From Vampirovibrionaceae bacterium NZW_1234 (GTDB lineage Bacteria; Cyanobacteriota; Vampirovibrionia; Vampirovibrionales; JAGQHJ01): a stretch of 64,000 nt of DNA. The notes below the pieces were generated by a model, which saw nothing but the letters and a program-made list of their open reading frames with translations, was not told where the DNA came from and made no database searches. Each line of letters begins with the position of its first letter. Position 1 is the stretch's first letter. A program made the translations under genes and the position numbers. Below, piece by piece: positions 15,070 to 53,485 of the stretch. The stretch is from positions 128,001 through 192,000 of the forward strand of contig JBGUGD010000007.1 of assembly GCA_041697335.1 (NCBI GenBank), read 5' to 3'.

Positions 15070-15981
15070 TTATTTCTTTTTTAAACCCGTAAAGTCGAAG
15101 TTAATGGTATCTGCAGTTTGCCCATTGGTAAATTCGGCAGTGCTGCGACCTTTTTCCTCAACCCCTTTTGTGCCGGTTTGCCCGGGTTTTGTGAGGTTGT
15201 AACCAAAAGACTTAATCCCAGGTTTGCCTCCCGGACCTTCCTCACCAAAGCCCCGAACTTGCTCTTTACCCGTATTTTTATCGTAAGACACAAATTTGAG
15301 GTTTCCGGCCTTGGCTTCGGCCTCGTCCAGTTTGCCATCATTATTTTTATCAAACCCGGACTTTTTAATGGCCTCAGGGTCCTTGGTACTTTGAATTTCA
15401 TCCGCCTGGAACTTGCCGTCGTTATTTTTATCTTCGAACAGCATGTCGTCTTCCCATTTGTTGACTTCTTTTTCGCCCGTGCCGTCATCAATTTTGACTT
15501 TGCCTTTATCGTCACCCAAGAGGGTCATTTTGCCGTCGCCATTAGAATCGACGGCAAAGGGATCGGCCTTGCCTGTGCCGATATCTTGTTTTTGCTGTTC
15601 AGATAAACCGCCCATGGGTTCCCATTGGTCATGATTTTTGGACCATACCCATTCCGTTCCGGGTGGTGGATCTTCTGTCGGTTTCGGCTTGGTCGGGTTA
15701 ATACCGCCAGCGCCACTATCGCCGCCCATGCCGCCAGCATCGGAGGCTTCTTCGCCACCGCCCAGACCGCCGCCTTCACCGAAAATGTCATCTTCTTCAA
15801 AGTCGTTCCACAATGTGTCTGCGTTCACATCGATCTGATCTTGAGGGTCCTCCTCTAAATTGAGCATCATCATCAGGGGATTCATCGACTCACGACGTGC
15901 CCGCAGATCTCTGTTTTGTTGTTGTAAATCTTGTACAAACGCCTCGTCACCACGAGCGCGCATTGCTGCTCCTATTGCCAT
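15070..15981 (-). CDS. Gly/Asp/Lys-rich protein with EF-hand-like Ca-binding loops
   Basis: DSNGDGK, DKNNDGKFQADE and DKNNDGKLDEAE; Gly-rich linker. Confidence 0.75.
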   Translation of the reverse strand: MAIGAAMRARGDEAFVQDLQQQNRDLRARRESMNPLMMMLNLEEDPQDQIDVNADTLWNDFEEDDIFGEGGGLGGGEEASDAGGMGGDSGAGGINPTKPKPTEDPPPGTEWVWSKNHDQWEPMGGLSEQQKQDIGTGKADPFAVDSNGDGKMTLLGDDKGKVKIDDGTGEKEVNKWEDDMLFEDKNNDGKFQADEIQSTKDPEAIKKSGFDKNNDGKLDEAEAKAGNLKFVSYDKNTGKEQVRGFGEEGPGGKPGIKSFGYNLTKPGQTGTKGVEEKGRSTAEFTNGQTADTINFDFTGLKKK

Positions 15982-16211: not shown

Positions 16212-17420
16212 TCACACCACTCGTGCAGGTTCCCAGAAATCATTCTGGTTGACTTGATGTGTCACTTGGTCCAGTGCTTTGGAAATATCCTGGATCAGAT
16301 CCTCCGCTGCCTCCAGGCCGACGGAGATGCGAAGGAGTTGGTCCGATATTCCCGCTGTTCTTCGGGCTTCTGGGTCCATGGCGGCATGGGTCATGGTGGC
16401 CGGGTGGGCAATGAGGCTCTCAACGCCACCCAATGACTCGGCGAGACTAAAAAGCTCTAAGGCATTTATGAACGAGATGATTTCATCATCACCGCCAATG
16501 AGCTCAAAACTCACCATGCCGCCATAGCCTTTTTGTTGCCGACATGCCAAAAGATGGTTCGGGTGGCTGTTTAGACCTGGATAGTAGACTTTATGTACTG
16601 CAGGGTGTTCCTCCAGAAGTCGTGCAATTTGCAGCGCGCTGGCTTCTTGTTGTCGAATGCGAATATCCAGTGTACGAATTCCGCGTAAGGTTAGATAGCT
16701 GTCAAAGGGTGCACCTGTATTCCCGATACAGTTACTCCACCAGGAAAACAGTTGATGTAATTCCGGGGTTTTCGACACCACTGCCCCACCGACAACATCG
16801 CTGTGGCCATTGATATATTTGGTTGTGGAGTGAACAACAATATCGACCCCCAGATTTAGAGGTTGCTGAAGGGTGGGTGATAAAAATGTATTATCTGCAG
16901 CGCATAACGTTTTGTATGGTTTGGCCAGACGGGTTACGGCCTGAATATCCGTTAAGCGTAATAAGGGGTTACTTGGGGTTTCGATGAGGAGTAGTTTTGG
17001 GGCTTCCCGTTCAAATTCTTGATTTAAGGCTTCCAGGTTGGTTAAGTCCACAAATTTAACCCGGAAATACCCTCGTTCGGCTTTATGTTTCAATAATCGA
17101 TAGGTTCCGCCATAACAGTCATGAGGCGCAAAGATAAGTTCTCCTGGTTCTACGGCATAGAACAGGAGATCGAGCGCTGCCATGCCAGATGCCGTGAGCA
17201 CGGCGCCAAACCCGCCCTCTAAGTTGGCAATGGTTTGAGCGGCATCATCACGTGTGGGGTTTCCGCTTCTGGTGTAGTCATAAGGGCGTTTGCCTTTAAA
17301 CCCGTCAAACGTAAAGTTGCTTGACAGATACAAGGGCGGTATAACGGCTCCATGAGCCGTGTCGGTTTCCACGGCGGATCGTGCGGCAATGGTTGCGGGT
17401 TGATAGGGACGGACTGTCAT
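16212..17420 (-). CDS. metB: Cystathionine gamma-synthase
   Basis: YTRSGNPTR, ETPSNP, HSTTKYINGHSD (PLP lysine) and AESLGGVESL; adjacent to metX. Confidence 0.92.
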   Translation of the reverse strand: MTVRPYQPATIAARSAVETDTAHGAVIPPLYLSSNFTFDGFKGKRPYDYTRSGNPTRDDAAQTIANLEGGFGAVLTASGMAALDLLFYAVEPGELIFAPHDCYGGTYRLLKHKAERGYFRVKFVDLTNLEALNQEFEREAPKLLLIETPSNPLLRLTDIQAVTRLAKPYKTLCAADNTFLSPTLQQPLNLGVDIVVHSTTKYINGHSDVVGGAVVSKTPELHQLFSWWSNCIGNTGAPFDSYLTLRGIRTLDIRIRQQEASALQIARLLEEHPAVHKVYYPGLNSHPNHLLACRQQKGYGGMVSFELIGGDDEIISFINALELFSLAESLGGVESLIAHPATMTHAAMDPEARRTAGISDQLLRISVGLEAAEDLIQDISKALDQVTHQVNQNDFWEPARVV

Positions 17421-17444
17421 GGTCGGATCCTCTCTGATATCTTG

Positions 17445-18461
17445 CTATCGTGTACCAATAGTGTGATGCGCCAGGATTACCTGACGAAAAATGCTTTCGA
17501 GATAGGGAATTTCTTTTAAGAAGGCATCATGGCCATAAAGCGAATGGTGGGTATAACACTGCTTTTTCATGGGAAGTGCATCATACAGATCAGTGATCGA
17601 TTCAATAGGAACCAGTTGATCGTGTGTGAAGCCAACCACAGTGACAGGCACATGGATTTGTTTGGGATCAACATGATGCAAGTCGATGGATTCGGACAAG
17701 GCAAGGTAACGTTCTGGAGACATTCTTCCAATAAACGCCCGGCCTTGGCTTTGTAAGTATGCTTCCAACTCAGTACGATCGGAAAAGCGTTGGCGAAATT
17801 CCTGAGAGGTTCTGTAGGTCGTCATGCCCAACTCTCTCGCCAGGCTCAACGCTCGATCCGGTTGTTGGGTTTCCATGCCAAAGCGAAGAATTTTTCGCTG
17901 AATACTGCGCCAGGCCGATCCCAACGGATCCGGATGATGGGCCGCACAAAGTACCAGGAGCTCTTGAACTCTCTCTGGAAAGAGTTCGCCAAAACTCAGG
18001 GCCACCATTCCCCCATAGGAGGCCCCGATAAAGGCGGCGAGCTGCTTGATGCCGAAATAATTGCATATCACAGCTGCAATACGGGCTTGATCCGTGGGTG
18101 TCACCGGTAAGTTCAGTGCTGTTGCTTCTGCGTCAGACGGAAAAAACTCAAAGGATAAAATTCGGAATTTGCGGGTATCTAAAGTTTTTTCAGGGCCACA
18201 TAATGCAGACCACCACCCCGACTGTTGGGTTTCTGGATTGGGGGATACGAACCGGTTGGCCGAAATGCCTCCTAAAACACAAAAAACGGGGGCTTTCACA
18301 GGACCCACCAATCGGGCGCGAACAGAAACCGGGAAATCAAAGAGCCCATACTCCAAACGAAGGGGTGTTGGAAGTGTTATCTGGCAATCAATATCCTGAT
18401 AAGATTCTCCAGAATACCAGGATTTTGTTGTCTTGAGTGATGATTTGAGGGCCGTTTTCAT
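17445..18461 (-). CDS. metX: Homoserine O-acyltransferase (MetX alpha/beta hydrolase family)
   Basis: LGGISA, GWW, IGASYGGMVA and YGHDAFL motifs; start probably ATG 18461 after GGAGA (track start 18491). Confidence 0.85.
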   Translation of the reverse strand: MKTALKSSLKTTKSWYSGESYQDIDCQITLPTPLRLEYGLFDFPVSVRARLVGPVKAPVFCVLGGISANRFVSPNPETQQSGWWSALCGPEKTLDTRKFRILSFEFFPSDAEATALNLPVTPTDQARIAAVICNYFGIKQLAAFIGASYGGMVALSFGELFPERVQELLVLCAAHHPDPLGSAWRSIQRKILRFGMETQQPDRALSLARELGMTTYRTSQEFRQRFSDRTELEAYLQSQGRAFIGRMSPERYLALSESIDLHHVDPKQIHVPVTVVGFTHDQLVPIESITDLYDALPMKKQCYTHHSLYGHDAFLKEIPYLESIFRQVILAHHTIGTR

Positions 18462-18550
18462 TGACATTCTCCGTTGAAATGGCTCTTCCATTTTTGGCTT
18501 AGGTTCCGATTTGCCATATCTGGGATTCTGCTGATTAGGGTCATCGTCAT
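18458..18550 (-). CDS. Possible 30 aa small ORF translationally coupled to metX
   Basis: AAGGAAA RBS; MTMTLISRIPDMANRNLSQKWKSHFNGECQ; its TGA overlaps the metX ATG (ATGA). Confidence 0.35.
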   Translation of the reverse strand: MTMTLISRIPDMANRNLSQKWKSHFNGECQ

Positions 18551-18587
18551 TAATTTCCTTTGCATTTTTCTTGAATTAAGAACAGTT

Positions 18588-18622
18588 AAAAGCCCCTCCG
18601 GACGAACTGTCTGGAGGGGCTT
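18588..18622 (-). terminator. Attenuator terminator hairpin upstream of metX-metB
   Basis: Minus-strand AAGCCCCTCCAGAC-AGTTC-GTCCGGAGGGGCTT followed by TTAACTGTTCTT. Confidence 0.8.
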
Positions 18623-18650
18623 GTCAAATCTGATGAGCTTTTGAGTAGGA

Positions 18651-18782
18651 CTAATGCGACAAGAAAGTTCCTCCGGACAGCCTGAACGGCATCGGCATCA
18701 TCATCATCGCCATGGTGGAATGACCCAAGCGCGAAGAAACAACTTGGGAGGGCATGTGTTGAATTGTGGTTAACAACAACAT
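18651..18782 (-). CDS. Met-rich leader peptide of metX-metB (43 aa)
   Basis: MLLLTTIQHMPSQVVSSRLGHSTMAMMMMPMPFRLSGGTFLSH; 6 Met in 8 codons; its 3' part is complementary to the terminator 5' arm. Confidence 0.85.
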   Translation of the reverse strand: MLLLTTIQHMPSQVVSSRLGHSTMAMMMMPMPFRLSGGTFLSH

Positions 18783-18905
18783 CTGTATCTCATTCCAGCC
18801 TAAGGTATTATATAAAAACACTTGATGCGTTTGAGGAACCATCGTTGCAAATTTTCAGGGACTTGTCAAACAAAAATTAAAAAACGTAACAGCCAACTCA
18901 AGCGG

Positions 18906-19697
18906 TTATATGGGTTGAAGCAGGGGTGTTGACGCTTGTTGTGCAACAAAATCCCAGAGGGTTTTCCGAGCATTTAGCGCCTCTTCAATGGCCGCTTCTG
19001 CCACTGGAATCAGTGCCGGTGTTTGAGTCAAAAGCTCATCCAGAATTCGATGGGCTCGTGGGCCGTGCTCTTCCCCATCCAGTTGAATGTGACGCTCAAG
19101 GTAAATAAGAAATGAGGCGCAATTTAAGCCGTGACGATGGAGTTCCGAGACCATTTCCATAAACATTTTGGGAATAATATCTTCACGGGCATGAAAGAAC
19201 ACGGCAGCCTGGACTTCCGGTGGGGCCTCCAACACGCGGAACGTGGTTAAGATGAAATTTTGAACTTCAGCAGGTAATGCTGCTTCTGCCAGTGCATCAG
19301 CCAGGGGGTGTCCTTTGTCCAGGGCAGCAATTACTGTTGTAATGGGGCCAAGGTCGCATTTTGCTTCGTCCATTGCGTTTAAATAAAGCTGAAAGTGACT
19401 CAATGTCTGGTTATTAATTCTATCCGTCTCTTCATCTAAGATGATTTCGTTGATCAGGCGAGCCAGTTCCAAGTTTTTGGGAGGCCGCCAAGGGAGGATC
19501 ATGCCTGTCAAATGAAGCTGAAGACTCTTGACCAGTGACATAAAATCCCAGACACAAAAAATGTGATGCTCCATGAACAGTCTTAAGGCTTGAGGAGAAT
19601 CTATCTGGGCGTAAACCGGATGGTCTTTTAACGCGTGTTTAAGCTCAACAATCCGGGACGAGGAAAAGAGTGGCTGTGTCATGGGGCTGACTTTCAT
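18906..19697 (-). CDS. DUF3050 / heme-oxygenase-like fold protein
   Basis: HPVY, FMEHHIFCVWDFMSLVK, RLINEIILDEETD, SHFQLY and YLERHIQLDGEEHGP. Confidence 0.85.
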   Translation of the reverse strand: MKVSPMTQPLFSSSRIVELKHALKDHPVYAQIDSPQALRLFMEHHIFCVWDFMSLVKSLQLHLTGMILPWRPPKNLELARLINEIILDEETDRINNQTLSHFQLYLNAMDEAKCDLGPITTVIAALDKGHPLADALAEAALPAEVQNFILTTFRVLEAPPEVQAAVFFHAREDIIPKMFMEMVSELHRHGLNCASFLIYLERHIQLDGEEHGPRAHRILDELLTQTPALIPVAEAAIEEALNARKTLWDFVAQQASTPLLQPI

Positions 19698-19726
19698 TGA
19701 TTAAGGGGGCCAATTTATCGTAAGGC

Positions 19727-21814
19727 TTACCCGGGGGATTGTCCAGTTGCATGCTGAAGGGCGGTCTTCAGAACGGTCCTGAGGGATTGGGCCATGTCTT
19801 TGTGCGTGTCAGGCAGCCCTGCCAAGTTCCCTTTGACCGGATCGCAAGCAGCGATATATAAGTTCTTGAGCTCAGATTCACTCAACTGCTTCACGCGAGC
19901 TGAGTAATGTTCACTAATGGCCAAAAGCTCTTCACGTATGGCAGGCAGTGGCTCCGGATCTCGCAGTAGTGAAAGTACTTTGGTCTGTGCTGCCGGTGAT
20001 GGAAAGGCAGTTGCCGGAATGCTTTTTTCAATGAATTCAGCAAATTGAGTTGCGAAAGATTTTGCCAGATCGGTTTCATGTTTCTCACCGTCCATAACCA
20101 CGGTAGAGCGCAACGCATTGGCCATACGCTGCAGGACTTTTAAATACTCATTGGGGGCGGTTGAAATACCGCCACTCGACTTTACGATGTCGCTGAGTTC
20201 TTCTTGAAGAATCGATTTCATTGTTTTTCCATTCATCGACAACTCGACCCCTAAGCCATCCGTAAATGATTCCACCGTGTTCATGACGCGACGGTTGAGA
20301 AGTTCAATCCCTTTGTCTGTAGGGCTTTCCCAGGGGCGTTTGTCTTGTTGGAACCGTTCGCTCACCACTTGGCGGATCAGCCCCGCAATTTCACCATCAT
20401 CCAGCGGTCGGTTAAACAGTTTGAGTTGGAACTGGGTGACGGGATCCAAAGGCTGATTTTTCTGTTTGGAAGCGTTGACCTCTTTCACAACCGCTTTAAC
20501 CACACTGATGATGCTGCGAGTACTGTAGCCGGGATTTTGATTAAGAATGGCAATGATGGTTGGGCGCTGGATGGCTTTATTGAGCTTTATTCCACCTTTG
20601 GCCAGCTCATTTAAAACGATTTCTGCCAGTTTATCCTTGGCTGCGTAATCAATAAACAGGATGCCTTCATGGACACGGCTTTTGGCTGCCCCATCAAAGG
20701 CAGGGAGTTGGTTACTGGTTGCCAGAATGCGTAATTTGGGGAGTCGCATCTTTCCACTGGCATTGCCCATGGCATTGACAATGGTTTTGTTCAGTTCCGG
20801 GAACTGCTCCATTTCATTGACGACCAGTAGAATTTCATCAAACGGTTTGCCATGAAGTTTTTCCAAGATTTTTAAGGCATGCTTGGATTCCACCTCATCG
20901 CCCCCGTAGACACGGTAGAGTAAATCTCGCGTACGAGCATCAAAGCCGGGATCGAGGCAAACGACATTTCCCTTTTCGAGACGCTCTCTGGCGACGGTTT
21001 GTAACAGGAATGTTTTGCCTGTACCGGGTGGACCTTGGGCAATGAGAAAATCTTTATGGCCTTTGCGAAAATCGTTGACCATGTCTTGAGTTGCTTGGTC
21101 ATAATAGCGCAAAGATTCCGTAACCGGGGTTTTAACATCTTCGAAAGTTTTAATGGAACGTTTCAGCGCATCTTCAATCGGGCCTTTTTCCATCATGGGC
21201 CGAAAGACATGGCGGAACAACAACCATCCGGCCAGGGAGGTCAAACCAAAAATCAGGATGGGCACAAATGTTTCTTTCAAGGTTTCTGTAAGTGCACCCG
21301 CCGCTTTTTCCGATATGGGTGTAACACGAGCTTGGAATTGATACGGAATGCCCTGCTTGTCGAGGGCATGGGTAAATTCTTTTGTGTTCTTCGGCAGGGT
21401 TGTTTTGAGCCACTGTTGATCGGCTAACTGTAACTTTGCGACCGGCAAGGCCATTAATGCGTGAGTATCGGTTTCAATGATTGCTCCAGTCACTGCATTG
21501 GATTGAATGAGTGTCATAGCATGCGTATAGGGCACAGTGCGAGAAGCACCCGAAGAAGGAGGGTCAATCTTGTCTCGTGTCTCTTGTGGTTGTTGTTTTT
21601 CTACCGCCAGTTCATCGGTGAATGGCTGTGCGGAGATTGAAGCGGTAGGTAATTCCTGCGAGGTTTGGAAAGTACTGTAGTAAGGTTGTGGTGGCCAATA
21701 GGGGCCAGGGTAGTTAGCTTGCATGGGTGTTGAGGAATAGTAGGGTGAAGAATAGGTCGGATAACCCCAGAAGGGATAACGAGCTGAATTGGCATACATA
21801 TAGGGAAACGACAT
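19727..21814 (-). CDS. Membrane-anchored AAA+ ATPase-like protein (FtsH-like N-terminal half, no protease motif)
   Basis: Tyr/Pro-rich N-terminus, one TM segment, GPPGTGKT, degenerate Walker B LLVVNE, LATSN. Confidence 0.75.
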   Translation of the reverse strand: MSFPYMYANSARYPFWGYPTYSSPYYSSTPMQANYPGPYWPPQPYYSTFQTSQELPTASISAQPFTDELAVEKQQPQETRDKIDPPSSGASRTVPYTHAMTLIQSNAVTGAIIETDTHALMALPVAKLQLADQQWLKTTLPKNTKEFTHALDKQGIPYQFQARVTPISEKAAGALTETLKETFVPILIFGLTSLAGWLLFRHVFRPMMEKGPIEDALKRSIKTFEDVKTPVTESLRYYDQATQDMVNDFRKGHKDFLIAQGPPGTGKTFLLQTVARERLEKGNVVCLDPGFDARTRDLLYRVYGGDEVESKHALKILEKLHGKPFDEILLVVNEMEQFPELNKTIVNAMGNASGKMRLPKLRILATSNQLPAFDGAAKSRVHEGILFIDYAAKDKLAEIVLNELAKGGIKLNKAIQRPTIIAILNQNPGYSTRSIISVVKAVVKEVNASKQKNQPLDPVTQFQLKLFNRPLDDGEIAGLIRQVVSERFQQDKRPWESPTDKGIELLNRRVMNTVESFTDGLGVELSMNGKTMKSILQEELSDIVKSSGGISTAPNEYLKVLQRMANALRSTVVMDGEKHETDLAKSFATQFAEFIEKSIPATAFPSPAAQTKVLSLLRDPEPLPAIREELLAISEHYSARVKQLSESELKNLYIAACDPVKGNLAGLPDTHKDMAQSLRTVLKTALQHATGQSPG

Positions 21815-52013: not shown

Positions 52014-53282
52014 TTAGCGAATCCGCTGAATCACCAGTTTTTTGGATTCCAAGGGATTCAGGCCCAGGCGAGCGCTGGCATTGTCAAAGTTCAAGGCAAT
52101 TTCGACGAAGCGTTTGTCTGGTTTCGGGCTGTAGGTGCTGCCCAAGTACAAGACAGGGTCTTTTTTGGGGACTTGGGCAAAGAATTTTTTCAAGGGCAAT
52201 TGCAGCGGCGTAATGGGATCTGTGGGATCGGCGCTTCGAATTTCAAATACCGCATCCTGGGCCAAGAGCTTTTCTGCTTGTTTGGCGTTGAGAATCAGGT
52301 TCGTTTTGATGTTACCGAAGGTTCGGTCTTGAACGCCATAAAATTCCGTGCCCTTGTCGCTTGCTTTTAGAGGCAGAGAGACGATGGATTGGGCAAATGG
52401 GGTGATCTTGGGCGTAAATTTACGAGCTCGTTTCTCATCACATAAGGCTTCCGGGGCAATGCCGTTGGCAATGGCCGCAGCTGCCACCATAAACACATCT
52501 CGCCCGTGGAAGGTTTCAGGCAGTGTGTAGCTGGGGTTTTTCAGGCGAATGCGCTCCAGTTGCTGAACTTTTTCCAAATCGATGGGCAGGAGTTTATAAC
52601 GTTCGCCTTTTTCTTCCAGACTCTTGATGGCCAAGCTGAAAATGCCGTTATTGGGGCCAATCACCAAGCCGTAGTTCTCCGTGATGAGAATGCTTCGATC
52701 ATGGGTGATTTTTTTCTTTCGGGTCTCCCCATTACCAACACCGGGGTCACACACCAGAACAACAATGTCTTTGTTTGGACGTGATGTTGCAATCCGTTGC
52801 AGGGTGAGTGCAGCGTAGTCGGTATTCCCGAAGGGAATGTCGGACAGGGAGTGAACGGGGATGGTGTCGGCTTTTTTCGGTGTTGAGAACACCCCTAAAA
52901 TGGCGTTTAGAACTGTCTTTAAAATCGCTTTGATTTGGCCGATTAGTGATGTGTCCGGTGCTTCTTTGGGGGCGCGATTCCAGCGCTTAAAGGGTTGCAG
53001 TTCCTGGCCCCGGGTGTCGGTGAATTTTAAGACGTCCCGGTAACGACTGATGGCTTCGGCATTGGAGCTGGCATCGTTAAAATCGGTAATGAGGTGAACA
53101 TTTTCAATGGGGGCTTTAACCCAGGATTTTCCAAATCGCAGGTTTGGCAAGGAATGTAATGACCCTGCGCCTTTTAGGAGGCTGTGACGAGCGGGCACCC
53201 GTTGGGAAATCTGCGCTGGGGATTTTTTTAGGGGAAGGGTGTGTTGTGTGACAGTGTGGTGAATGGGGTGAATGTGGGACAT
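52014..53282 (-). CDS. SAM hydroxide adenosyltransferase / SAM-dependent halogenase (DUF62) family with LRFG leader
   Basis: LITDF, VCDPGVG, GPNNGIF, TFHGRDVF and FGNIKTN. Confidence 0.85.
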   Translation of the reverse strand: MSHIHPIHHTVTQHTLPLKKSPAQISQRVPARHSLLKGAGSLHSLPNLRFGKSWVKAPIENVHLITDFNDASSNAEAISRYRDVLKFTDTRGQELQPFKRWNRAPKEAPDTSLIGQIKAILKTVLNAILGVFSTPKKADTIPVHSLSDIPFGNTDYAALTLQRIATSRPNKDIVVLVCDPGVGNGETRKKKITHDRSILITENYGLVIGPNNGIFSLAIKSLEEKGERYKLLPIDLEKVQQLERIRLKNPSYTLPETFHGRDVFMVAAAAIANGIAPEALCDEKRARKFTPKITPFAQSIVSLPLKASDKGTEFYGVQDRTFGNIKTNLILNAKQAEKLLAQDAVFEIRSADPTDPITPLQLPLKKFFAQVPKKDPVLYLGSTYSPKPDKRFVEIALNFDNASARLGLNPLESKKLVIQRIR

Positions 53283-53319
53283 GAGGGAGCATCCTTTCGG
53301 GGTTTACTGACAGAACAAT

Positions 53320-53357
53320 AAAAAAGACCGCCGACCTGGTGGAGGTCGGCGGTCTTT
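53320..53357 (-). terminator. Attenuator terminator upstream of the SAM hydrolase
   Basis: Perfect 15 bp stem AAAGACCGCCGACCT-CCACC-AGGTCGGCGGTCTTT ending in a T6 run, ~40 nt before the start codon. Confidence 0.9.
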
Positions 53358-53374: not shown

Positions 53375-53485
53375 TTATCTCGATCCGGCGCTGCACGTGC
53401 CAACCTCCACCAAGAAGGGCATCATCATGGTGGACATCATCATGGCAGTGGTTTGTGCAGCGGTTTGGATGGCAAGAGTCAGCAT
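53375..53485 (-). CDS. Met-rich leader peptide of the SAM hydrolase (36 aa)
   Basis: Hand translation MLTLAIQTAAQTTAMMMSTMMMPFLVEVGTCSAGSR*; 6 Met in 8 codons; contains the antiterminator strand. Confidence 0.85.
   Translation of the reverse strand: MLTLAIQTAAQTTAMMMSTMMMPFLVEVGTCSAGSR

Follow-up and report, generated by a model that had tools for sequence, protein, structure and literature searches.

How the methionine biosynthesis genes metX and metB are controlled is the question raised by the stretch of DNA analysed here, a 64,000-nucleotide (nt) window from contig JBGUGD010000007.1 of Vampirovibrionaceae bacterium NZW_1234; unless a contig is named, coordinates are positions in this window. 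Genes for methionine (Met) are usually described as being controlled by MetJ or MetR, by S-adenosylmethionine (SAM) riboswitches or by T-boxes. In the window, metX-metB lies on the minus strand, and on the same strand in front of metX there is a short open reading frame (ORF) carrying a dense run of Met codons, followed by a hairpin resembling an intrinsic terminator. Judging from the sequence and its relatives, we consider it very likely that this region is a ribosome-mediated transcription attenuator of the trp type, which would sense Met-tRNA and control metX-metB.

Leader, terminator and candidate antiterminator in front of metX

The leader ORF (Table 1) sits between the stop of the upstream gene (18906) and metX, the upstream gene ending 280 nt ahead of the hairpin. 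The initial annotation of this stretch, made from the letters alone, had read here a leader of 43 amino acids (aa) with six ATG in eight codons and a stop at 18651, and this reading holds base for base: the second codon of the run is GCG, the seventh is CCG and the other six are ATG, and all six ATGs of the region are in frame. In the ORF listing the frame is open further up, from ATG 18842, which gives 63 aa. A 151-nt contig from another sample (X9) spans positions 18586-18736 with zero differences.

A GC-rich hairpin with a U tail before metX, at 18622-18588, had been annotated as well; it is present as described, with an energy of -22.6 kcal/mol and one A/C mismatch. The hairpin begins 29 nt past the leader stop, and the letters behind its 3' arm read TT AA CTGTTCTT. 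It appears in both the minimum free energy (MFE) and the centroid structure of the whole leader, which is more stably folded than its shuffles (z = -2.77). A simple terminator scan missed it; in our own reading, which is not a result of the tool, the internal mismatch breaks the ungapped stem that the scan needs and hence left the hairpin unflagged.

The putative upstream strand of an antiterminator lies inside the leader ORF, where it could form a duplex with the terminator 5' arm and loop. The complementarity claimed for positions 18680-18665 with the 5' arm plus two loop nucleotides proved correct, 13 of 16 positions being identical to the reverse complement of 18622-18607. The duplex starts 6 nt past the Met run and finishes 15 nt ahead of the stop. 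Its energy is -20.0 kcal/mol, compared with -8.6 ± 2.8 kcal/mol for shuffled sequences (0 of 500 equal or better) and with -6.0 and -3.6 kcal/mol for native flank controls of equal length.

A promoter for the leader can be proposed by reading the sequence. A perfect TTGACA, the candidate -35 box, stands approximately 70-85 nt 5' of the leader ATG in all three copies of the element in this genome; its -10 partner would be AACGAT, a weak match after a 17-nt spacer, and a TATAAT is an alternative candidate. ATG 18782 would be the first AUG of the transcript under either candidate promoter.

In a six-frame count over the whole genome (3.70 Mb, GC 50%), just 11 sites have at least six ATG per eight codons, and the majority of them fall within long Met/Gly-rich proteins. 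Short frames with at least four ATG per nine codons number 107, of which 17 have a hairpin and a T run behind them; the two richest are both in the window. The Met/Gly-rich repeat proteins, which account for most other dense ATG runs of the genome, carry repeated blocks of five to seven Met per eight residues and are encoded at 134400-135300 and 166600-166900 of contig C29, at 12785-12935 of contig C15 and at 15070-15981 (minus strand) of the window. The last of these, 303 aa long, shows weak EF-hand-like matches in addition to its Met-rich stretch.

Met leaders of the Vampirovibrionales and the genes behind them

Forty-nine genomes of the order Vampirovibrionales were surveyed, and Met leaders with terminators were found in 29 of them, 33 copies in all. 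The initial annotation had suggested searching relatives for poly-Met frames before met genes, and the search yielded 32 further leaders, the whole set standing before four gene families: metX-metB (one copy), metY (six), a SAM_HAT-like gene (six) and a family encoding a helical protein (20). Leaders with a Met run are found directly 5' of orthologues of the SAM_HAT-like protein and of the 429-aa helical protein of this genome in other genera and families of the order. The six metY copies come from genus g6, which belongs to another family than the present genome, and lie upstream of the gene for O-acetylhomoserine sulfhydrylase (MetY), as identified by a profile match in one genome (G031; TIGR01326, 635 bits) and judged from N-terminal sequence in the remaining five. 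The stretch Met-Met-Met-Pro-Met-Pro-(Ile/Phe) is common to the metY leaders and the metX leader. Weak copies with only two or three ATG make up 7 of the 33 and include all five from genus g20; antiterminator and terminator nucleotides remain conserved in the g20 leaders. The organisms with the full leader are uncultured and represented by metagenome-assembled genomes, and in the cultured V. chlorellavorus group a degenerate leader is all that is present.

The 33 copies share descent and do not represent 33 independent events. Within their first 75 nt, 170 of 173 ATGs share one frame, and the spacings between non-adjacent ATGs are multiples of three in 59 of 62 cases. An RNA motif would not need such phasing, and the frame bias therefore points to translation of the leader. 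Cys codons are interleaved with the Met run in many leaders, and copies before different gene families have Thr-Ala(-Leu) ahead of the run and Pro or Cys-Pro behind it. The interleaved Cys codons and the Thr-Ala(-Leu) could reflect common descent, joint sensing of the sulfur amino acids or a role of the nascent peptide.

Terminator, duplex and folding statistics were computed for 18 copies; in the remaining 15 of the 33, terminators were read by eye. All 18 possess a hairpin of -16 to -33 kcal/mol with a T tract, 2-49 nt past the leader stop. The antiterminator duplex beats at least 95% of its shuffles in 10 copies and 90% in three more; in five it does neither. Set against native segments of equal length, the segment behind the Met run is the better partner in 17 of 18 copies when the control is taken upstream of the run, and in all 18 when it is taken downstream of the terminator (mean pairing -18.9 kcal/mol for the segment itself, -7.0 and -6.1 kcal/mol for the two controls). 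The helix sequences vary between gene families, and their complementarity is kept. In folds of transcripts that end ahead of the 3' arm, with a ribosome masked at the middle Met codon, the post-Met segment takes up half or more of the 5' arm in 16 of the 18 copies; the paired fraction for metX is 0.83. The RNAalifold consensus of the 18 copies contains five pairs, all within the terminator. A covariance model built from these copies (R1) recovered further ones outside the training set, the six metY leaders of genus g6 among them; its matches at E up to 0.01 in 39 of the 49 genomes do not count Met leaders, since many low-scoring ones are bare terminators or leaders for other amino acids.

Known RNA elements were sought in the same genomes. 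The initial annotation had proposed an Rfam scan to exclude a SAM riboswitch; none was found, and no T-box or other family fits. A permissive scan with Rfam 15 (positions 17000-20500, E up to 10) gave seven matches, none near its gathering score and none to a SAM riboswitch, a T-box or any other riboswitch. The SAM-I riboswitch (RF00162, gathering score 44.4 bits) has no match in 17000-20500 even at E up to 10, nor anywhere in the genome. Orthologues of metX at E up to 1e-40 occur in seven of the 49 genomes, and the six others each carry a single Rfam SAM-I match in the whole genome, lying directly 5' of metX; in relatives, the model scores 62-74.7 bits at this place. Since the same six genomes also hold a Met leader before the helical-protein gene (in two of them a weak one with three ATG), the two systems exist side by side in the order. 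A search for closer kin of this metX returned one distant fragment from metagenome contigs (34% identity over 50 residues) and none from genome contigs. The loci of 20 relatives without a Met run gave no Rfam match at gathering thresholds.

Among the weak matches of the covariance model, the order also has leaders enriched in other amino acids, their terminators being similar. In six genomes, acetolactate-synthase-like genes are preceded by Ile/Val/Leu-rich leaders; a gene resembling 3-deoxy-D-arabino-heptulosonate 7-phosphate (DAHP) synthase has a Tyr/Phe-rich one, and one further leader is Thr/Ile-rich, the two enzyme names being readings of N-termini. With leaders of other specificity beside those for Met, leader-peptide attenuation appears, on these sequences, to be a common device that is widespread within the Vampirovibrionales.

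In the window, the enzymes behind the first leader are a homoserine O-succinyltransferase (MetX) and a cystathionine gamma-synthase (MetB). The true start of metX is probably ATG 18461, which has a GGAG 7 nt upstream. Between the terminator and metX there is an ORF of 35 codons (18458-18565, minus strand) that ends in an ATGA overlap with this ATG, an arrangement that may be translational coupling or chance. The window contains a second Met leader, whose antiterminator duplex has an energy of -27.7 kcal/mol (0 of 500 shuffles equal; flank controls -2.3 and -4.6 kcal/mol). The gene behind it encodes a member of the SAM hydroxide adenosyltransferase/SAM hydrolase family, which the NCBIfam (R)-SAM hydrolase models match far below cut-off. 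A third Met leader, on contig C29, precedes the helical-protein gene. The helical protein has no family in Pfam or NCBIfam and is specific to the order, with paralogues in many Vampirovibrionales genomes; an Atlas search returned hypothetical Melainabacteria clusters only. Its AlphaFold model is all-helical, with a mean predicted local distance difference test (pLDDT) score of 72.2, and the fold has no match in the PDB at E up to 0.001. As just two 19-residue windows are strongly hydrophobic, and neither a family nor a fold match is available, calling it a transporter remains a guess.

The proteins encoded behind the leaders were ranked by Met content among the 1190 ORFs of at least 350 aa of the genome (median 2.47%). 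The SAM_HAT-like protein, with two Met residues in 422 aa (0.47%), is among the lowest 0.2%, the helical protein (0.70%) among the lowest 1.4% and MetB (1.24%) among the lowest 6%. A Met-poor make-up fits proteins that are needed while Met-tRNA is scarce.

Table 1. Features of the Met leader loci of this genome. Locations are positions in the window unless contig C29 is given; promoter boxes are candidates read from the sequence.
Feature	Location	Strand	Remarks
Candidate -35 box of the leader promoter	18864-18869	-	TTGACA
Alternative candidate -10 box	18807-18812	-	TATAAT; without a good -35 partner
Leader ORF of metX	18782-18651	-	43 codons + TAG (18653-18651); putative start ATG 18782
Regulatory run	18713-18690	-	M A M M M M P M
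Antiterminator upstream strand	18665-18683	-	within leader ORF; duplex with terminator 5' arm + loop
Intrinsic-terminator-like hairpin	18622-18588	-	5' arm 18622-18609; loop 18608-18604 (AGTTC); 3' arm 18603-18590
metX, homoserine O-succinyltransferase type	17445-18491	-	NCBIfam NF006449, 311.9 bits (cut-off 296); Pfam alpha/beta hydrolase
metB, cystathionine gamma-synthase	16212-17420	-	NCBIfam TIGR02080, 567.2 bits (cut-off 504.55); Pfam Cys_Met_Meta_PP
Second Met leader ORF	53375-53485	-	36 codons; Met run 53443-53420, 6 ATG per 8 codons
Antiterminator strand of second leader	53412-53399	-	14 bp with one G-U
Terminator of second leader	53316-53357	-	perfect 15-bp stem; T tract TTTATTGTT behind three stem T's; -27.2 kcal/mol
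SAM_HAT-like gene	52014-53282	-	Pfam SAM_HAT_N 52.9 bits, SAM_HAT_C 28.8 bits, both above cut-off
Third Met leader	C29:117394-117547	+	4 ATG in 6 codons; terminator -33 kcal/mol
Helical-protein gene	C29:117610-118899	+	429 aa

Proposed mechanism and alternative explanations

The comparative evidence favours the attenuator logic put forward in the initial annotation, namely a Met leader, a terminator and an antiterminator that exclude each other, and from it we infer the following function. When Met-tRNA is plentiful, the ribosome would move on through the leader and cover the antiterminator strand during synthesis of the hairpin by the polymerase; the terminator would then form and the transcript would end near 18588. 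When charged elongator Met-tRNA is scarce, the ribosome would stall at the run's first AUGs, with the antiterminator strand 15-30 nt further downstream; this strand, being free, would capture the emerging 5' arm of the terminator, allowing the polymerase to continue into metX-metB. The competition would be kinetic and co-transcriptional, as in the trp attenuator.

Several observations weigh against this proposal. At metX itself, the U tail is TTTTAA, only four U followed by AA; reading of the sequence finds no clear Shine-Dalgarno sequence before ATG 18782; and a promoter scan of the locus reported no site passing its thresholds, the TTGACA and the TATAAT included. Since neither an orthologous metX leader nor a close relative of this metX was found, the metX copy stands alone and has no covariation of its own. 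The Met content of MetX (2.30%) is ordinary. The antiterminator duplexes of 8 of the 18 copies fail to beat 95% of their shuffles. The leaders of genus g20 (five genomes), which precede the helical-protein gene, have two or three ATG left and Ile codons (ATT/ATC) elsewhere, and the Cys codons mixed into many runs make it uncertain that Met alone is sensed.

Folding with a masked ribosome, one of the checks named in the initial annotation, shows the antiterminator forming in truncated transcripts with a stalled ribosome, as described above for metX and most other copies. An equilibrium switch is not seen: MFE folds of the full leader keep the terminator under a mask on a Met codon as well as under one on the stop, and it persists at every stall position in 17 of the 18 copies. 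With the terminator as the stabler structure at equilibrium, a switch would need to act kinetically. With the ribosome on the stop codon, just nine of the 18 copies lose the antiterminator in truncated transcripts, and at metX the paired fraction is still 0.67, compared with 0.83 for a stall on Met; the simple fold model thus does not explain how an unstalled ribosome would block antitermination.

Other explanations of the same features have to be weighed against Met-tRNA sensing. A translated leader might control the terminator and yet report the general speed or coupling of translation (during starvation, through guanosine tetraphosphate (ppGpp) or under antibiotics), or Cys as much as Met, as the interspersed Cys codons and the ATG-poor g20 copies would allow. 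We regard this as very unlikely, because the in-frame ATG run is the sole feature common to copies before four unrelated gene families, the regulated genes belong to the methionine pathway or would cleave SAM, and other amino-acid pathways of the order have differently enriched leaders. TnaC is an arrest peptide that responds to tryptophan, and a Met-rich nascent peptide could likewise sense free Met or SAM in the ribosome tunnel; the residues on either side of the run are conserved between gene families, making selection on the peptide possible. Stalling by a ligand, however, would free the antiterminator at high Met or SAM, the opposite of what biosynthetic and salvage genes would require, and shared ancestry together with base pairing by the downstream segment also accounts for the conserved flanks, so that an arrest peptide seems less probable again.

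It could also be argued that the leader is an untranslated switch, a new SAM or Met riboswitch or a protein-binding leader in which the AUG repeats serve as an RNA motif. The chance of this is slimmer still: the phasing of the ATGs speaks against it, RNAalifold finds no conserved structure beyond the terminator in the 18 copies and no Rfam family fits, even though the element replaces the SAM-I riboswitch at metX and its ATG lacks a clear Shine-Dalgarno sequence. Least probable of all is the absence of function, that is, an (ATG)n repeat by an ordinary terminator or a chance hairpin. Slippage can create ATG runs, but this one keeps its frame despite the other codons that interrupt it, and three families of the order conserve it. 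The mirror version of this explanation is a His leader on the plus strand, where the best sub-threshold Rfam match is His_leader (RF00514; 23.3 bits, E 0.9, where the gathering score is 49) and an ORF at 18654-18773 has six His in eight codons. That ORF is His-rich because CAT is the complement of ATG, and the candidate was rejected: the Rfam alignment covers the hairpin alone, the hairpin precedes the ORF rather than following it, no T tract lies behind, and what comes next is the antisense of a DUF3050 gene instead of any his gene.

Beyond Met-tRNA sensing at metX-metB, it is tentatively suggested, with rather less than even confidence, that the copies form an order-wide poly-Met regulon responding to Met-tRNA, that one member took the place of the SAM-I riboswitch before the metX of this genome, and that the SAM_HAT-like and helical proteins constitute a rescue module for Met starvation. 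The SAM_HAT-like enzyme might sacrifice SAM to regenerate methionine, and the helical protein, probably in the membrane, might import or handle methionine; both being nearly free of Met, they could still be made when Met-tRNA is scarce. The leader family provides functional leads, open to testing, for the SAM_HAT-like enzyme and for a protein family specific to the Vampirovibrionales. Within one order and at the same gene, a translation-coupled sensor of Met-tRNA and a riboswitch sensing SAM would be interchangeable.

Comparison with known systems

Classical leader-peptide attenuators are those of the enterobacterial trp, his, leu, thr, ilv and pheA genes, represented in Rfam by Trp_leader, His_leader, Leu_leader and Thr_leader. 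The elements described here resemble them in having a short ORF rich in codons for the end product, a terminator before the first gene, an antiterminator that shares the terminator 5' arm, and regulatory codons one ribosome footprint 5' of the antiterminator strand. The metX element bears no sequence relation to the known families beyond the sub-threshold His_leader match on the wrong strand, and its host is a non-photosynthetic relative of the cyanobacteria. At metX, the whole antiterminator strand also falls within the ORF and finishes 15 nt short of the stop, and a ribosome at the stop would therefore not obviously cover it. Finally, the regulatory codon is AUG, at once the sole Met codon and the start codon. 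Because cells have separate initiator and elongator Met tRNAs, a poly-AUG sensor raises questions of internal initiation that go beyond the trp and his models.

The SAM-I riboswitch (S box) of the six related genomes occupies the same position and likewise controls metX by premature termination. It is an RNA aptamer that binds SAM directly, whereas the element in the window has no aptamer and would sense the charging of Met-tRNA through translation.

Leader peptides for Met have been predicted before. In Campylobacter jejuni, a 20-aa MetL with three Met codons was predicted on a short RNA before metBA (cj1727c-1726c) (Porcelli et al. 2013, PMC3847290), and translation-initiation peaks were later reported for MetL, along with another small ORF rich in Met that precedes a methionine-transporter gene (Froschauer et al. 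2025, PMC11955535). According to the accessible text of these papers, MetL is similar in that its short ORF contains Met codons, the short RNA carrying it finishes shortly past the stop codon, met biosynthesis genes come next, and action by ribosome stalling and antitermination has been proposed; it differs from the leader described here, which has 43 codons with six Met in eight and is one of the 33 copies of an order-wide family with a regulon of four gene families. The likeness is one of architecture and target pathway only. In Streptomyces lividans TK24, metL before metNIQ was named a methionine-dependent attenuator (Droste et al. 2021, PMC8079986). It too is a small ORF that contains Met and Cys codons and precedes a methionine-related operon, but as described in the available part of that report it is leaderless, has two internal Met among Cys and Arg codons and lacks a typical Rho-independent terminator, whereas a hairpin with a T tract follows every one of the 18 leaders analysed here. 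For neither C. jejuni MetL nor S. lividans metL is a response to Met reported in the accessible text of these sources (PMC3847290, PMC11955535, PMC8079986).

Among systems acting at a different level, the leaderless polycysteine small ORFs of mycobacteria are alike in sensing a sulfur amino acid through ribosomes that stall along a run of its codons (Canestrari et al. 2020, bioRxiv 10.1101/834739). As far as the accessible portion of that preprint goes, they sequester a Shine-Dalgarno sequence and act on translation, with no intrinsic terminator, and the amino acid sensed is Cys; in the window, by contrast, the terminator lies approximately 100 nt before the gene start and Met codons dominate. 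In the accessible text of two further papers, one saw no RNA element upstream of the methionine operons of Actinobacteria (Seliverstov et al. 2005, PMC1262725) and the other mentions no methionine case (Naville and Gautheret 2010, PMC2965389).

The initial annotation had been aware of no characterised Met leader-peptide attenuator. That statement stands, within the accessible text of these sources, as regards functional dissection; as predictions, C. jejuni MetL and S. lividans metL are in print, and our literature search for Met leader peptides, which covered the sources in part, returned these two and the C. jejuni transporter small ORF only, all of them predicted. Met-codon leaders thus exist in print only as brief predictions and are without an Rfam family of their own, and no Rfam family matched the one studied here. 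With 33 copies in 29 genomes before four gene families, the family is large and consistent enough to make the mechanism easy to test. Judged against the systems above, as far as their accessible descriptions go, the class of mechanism is textbook and Met versions of it have already been predicted; the leaders described here are an independent and unusually clear case, forming a large family in a little-studied lineage.

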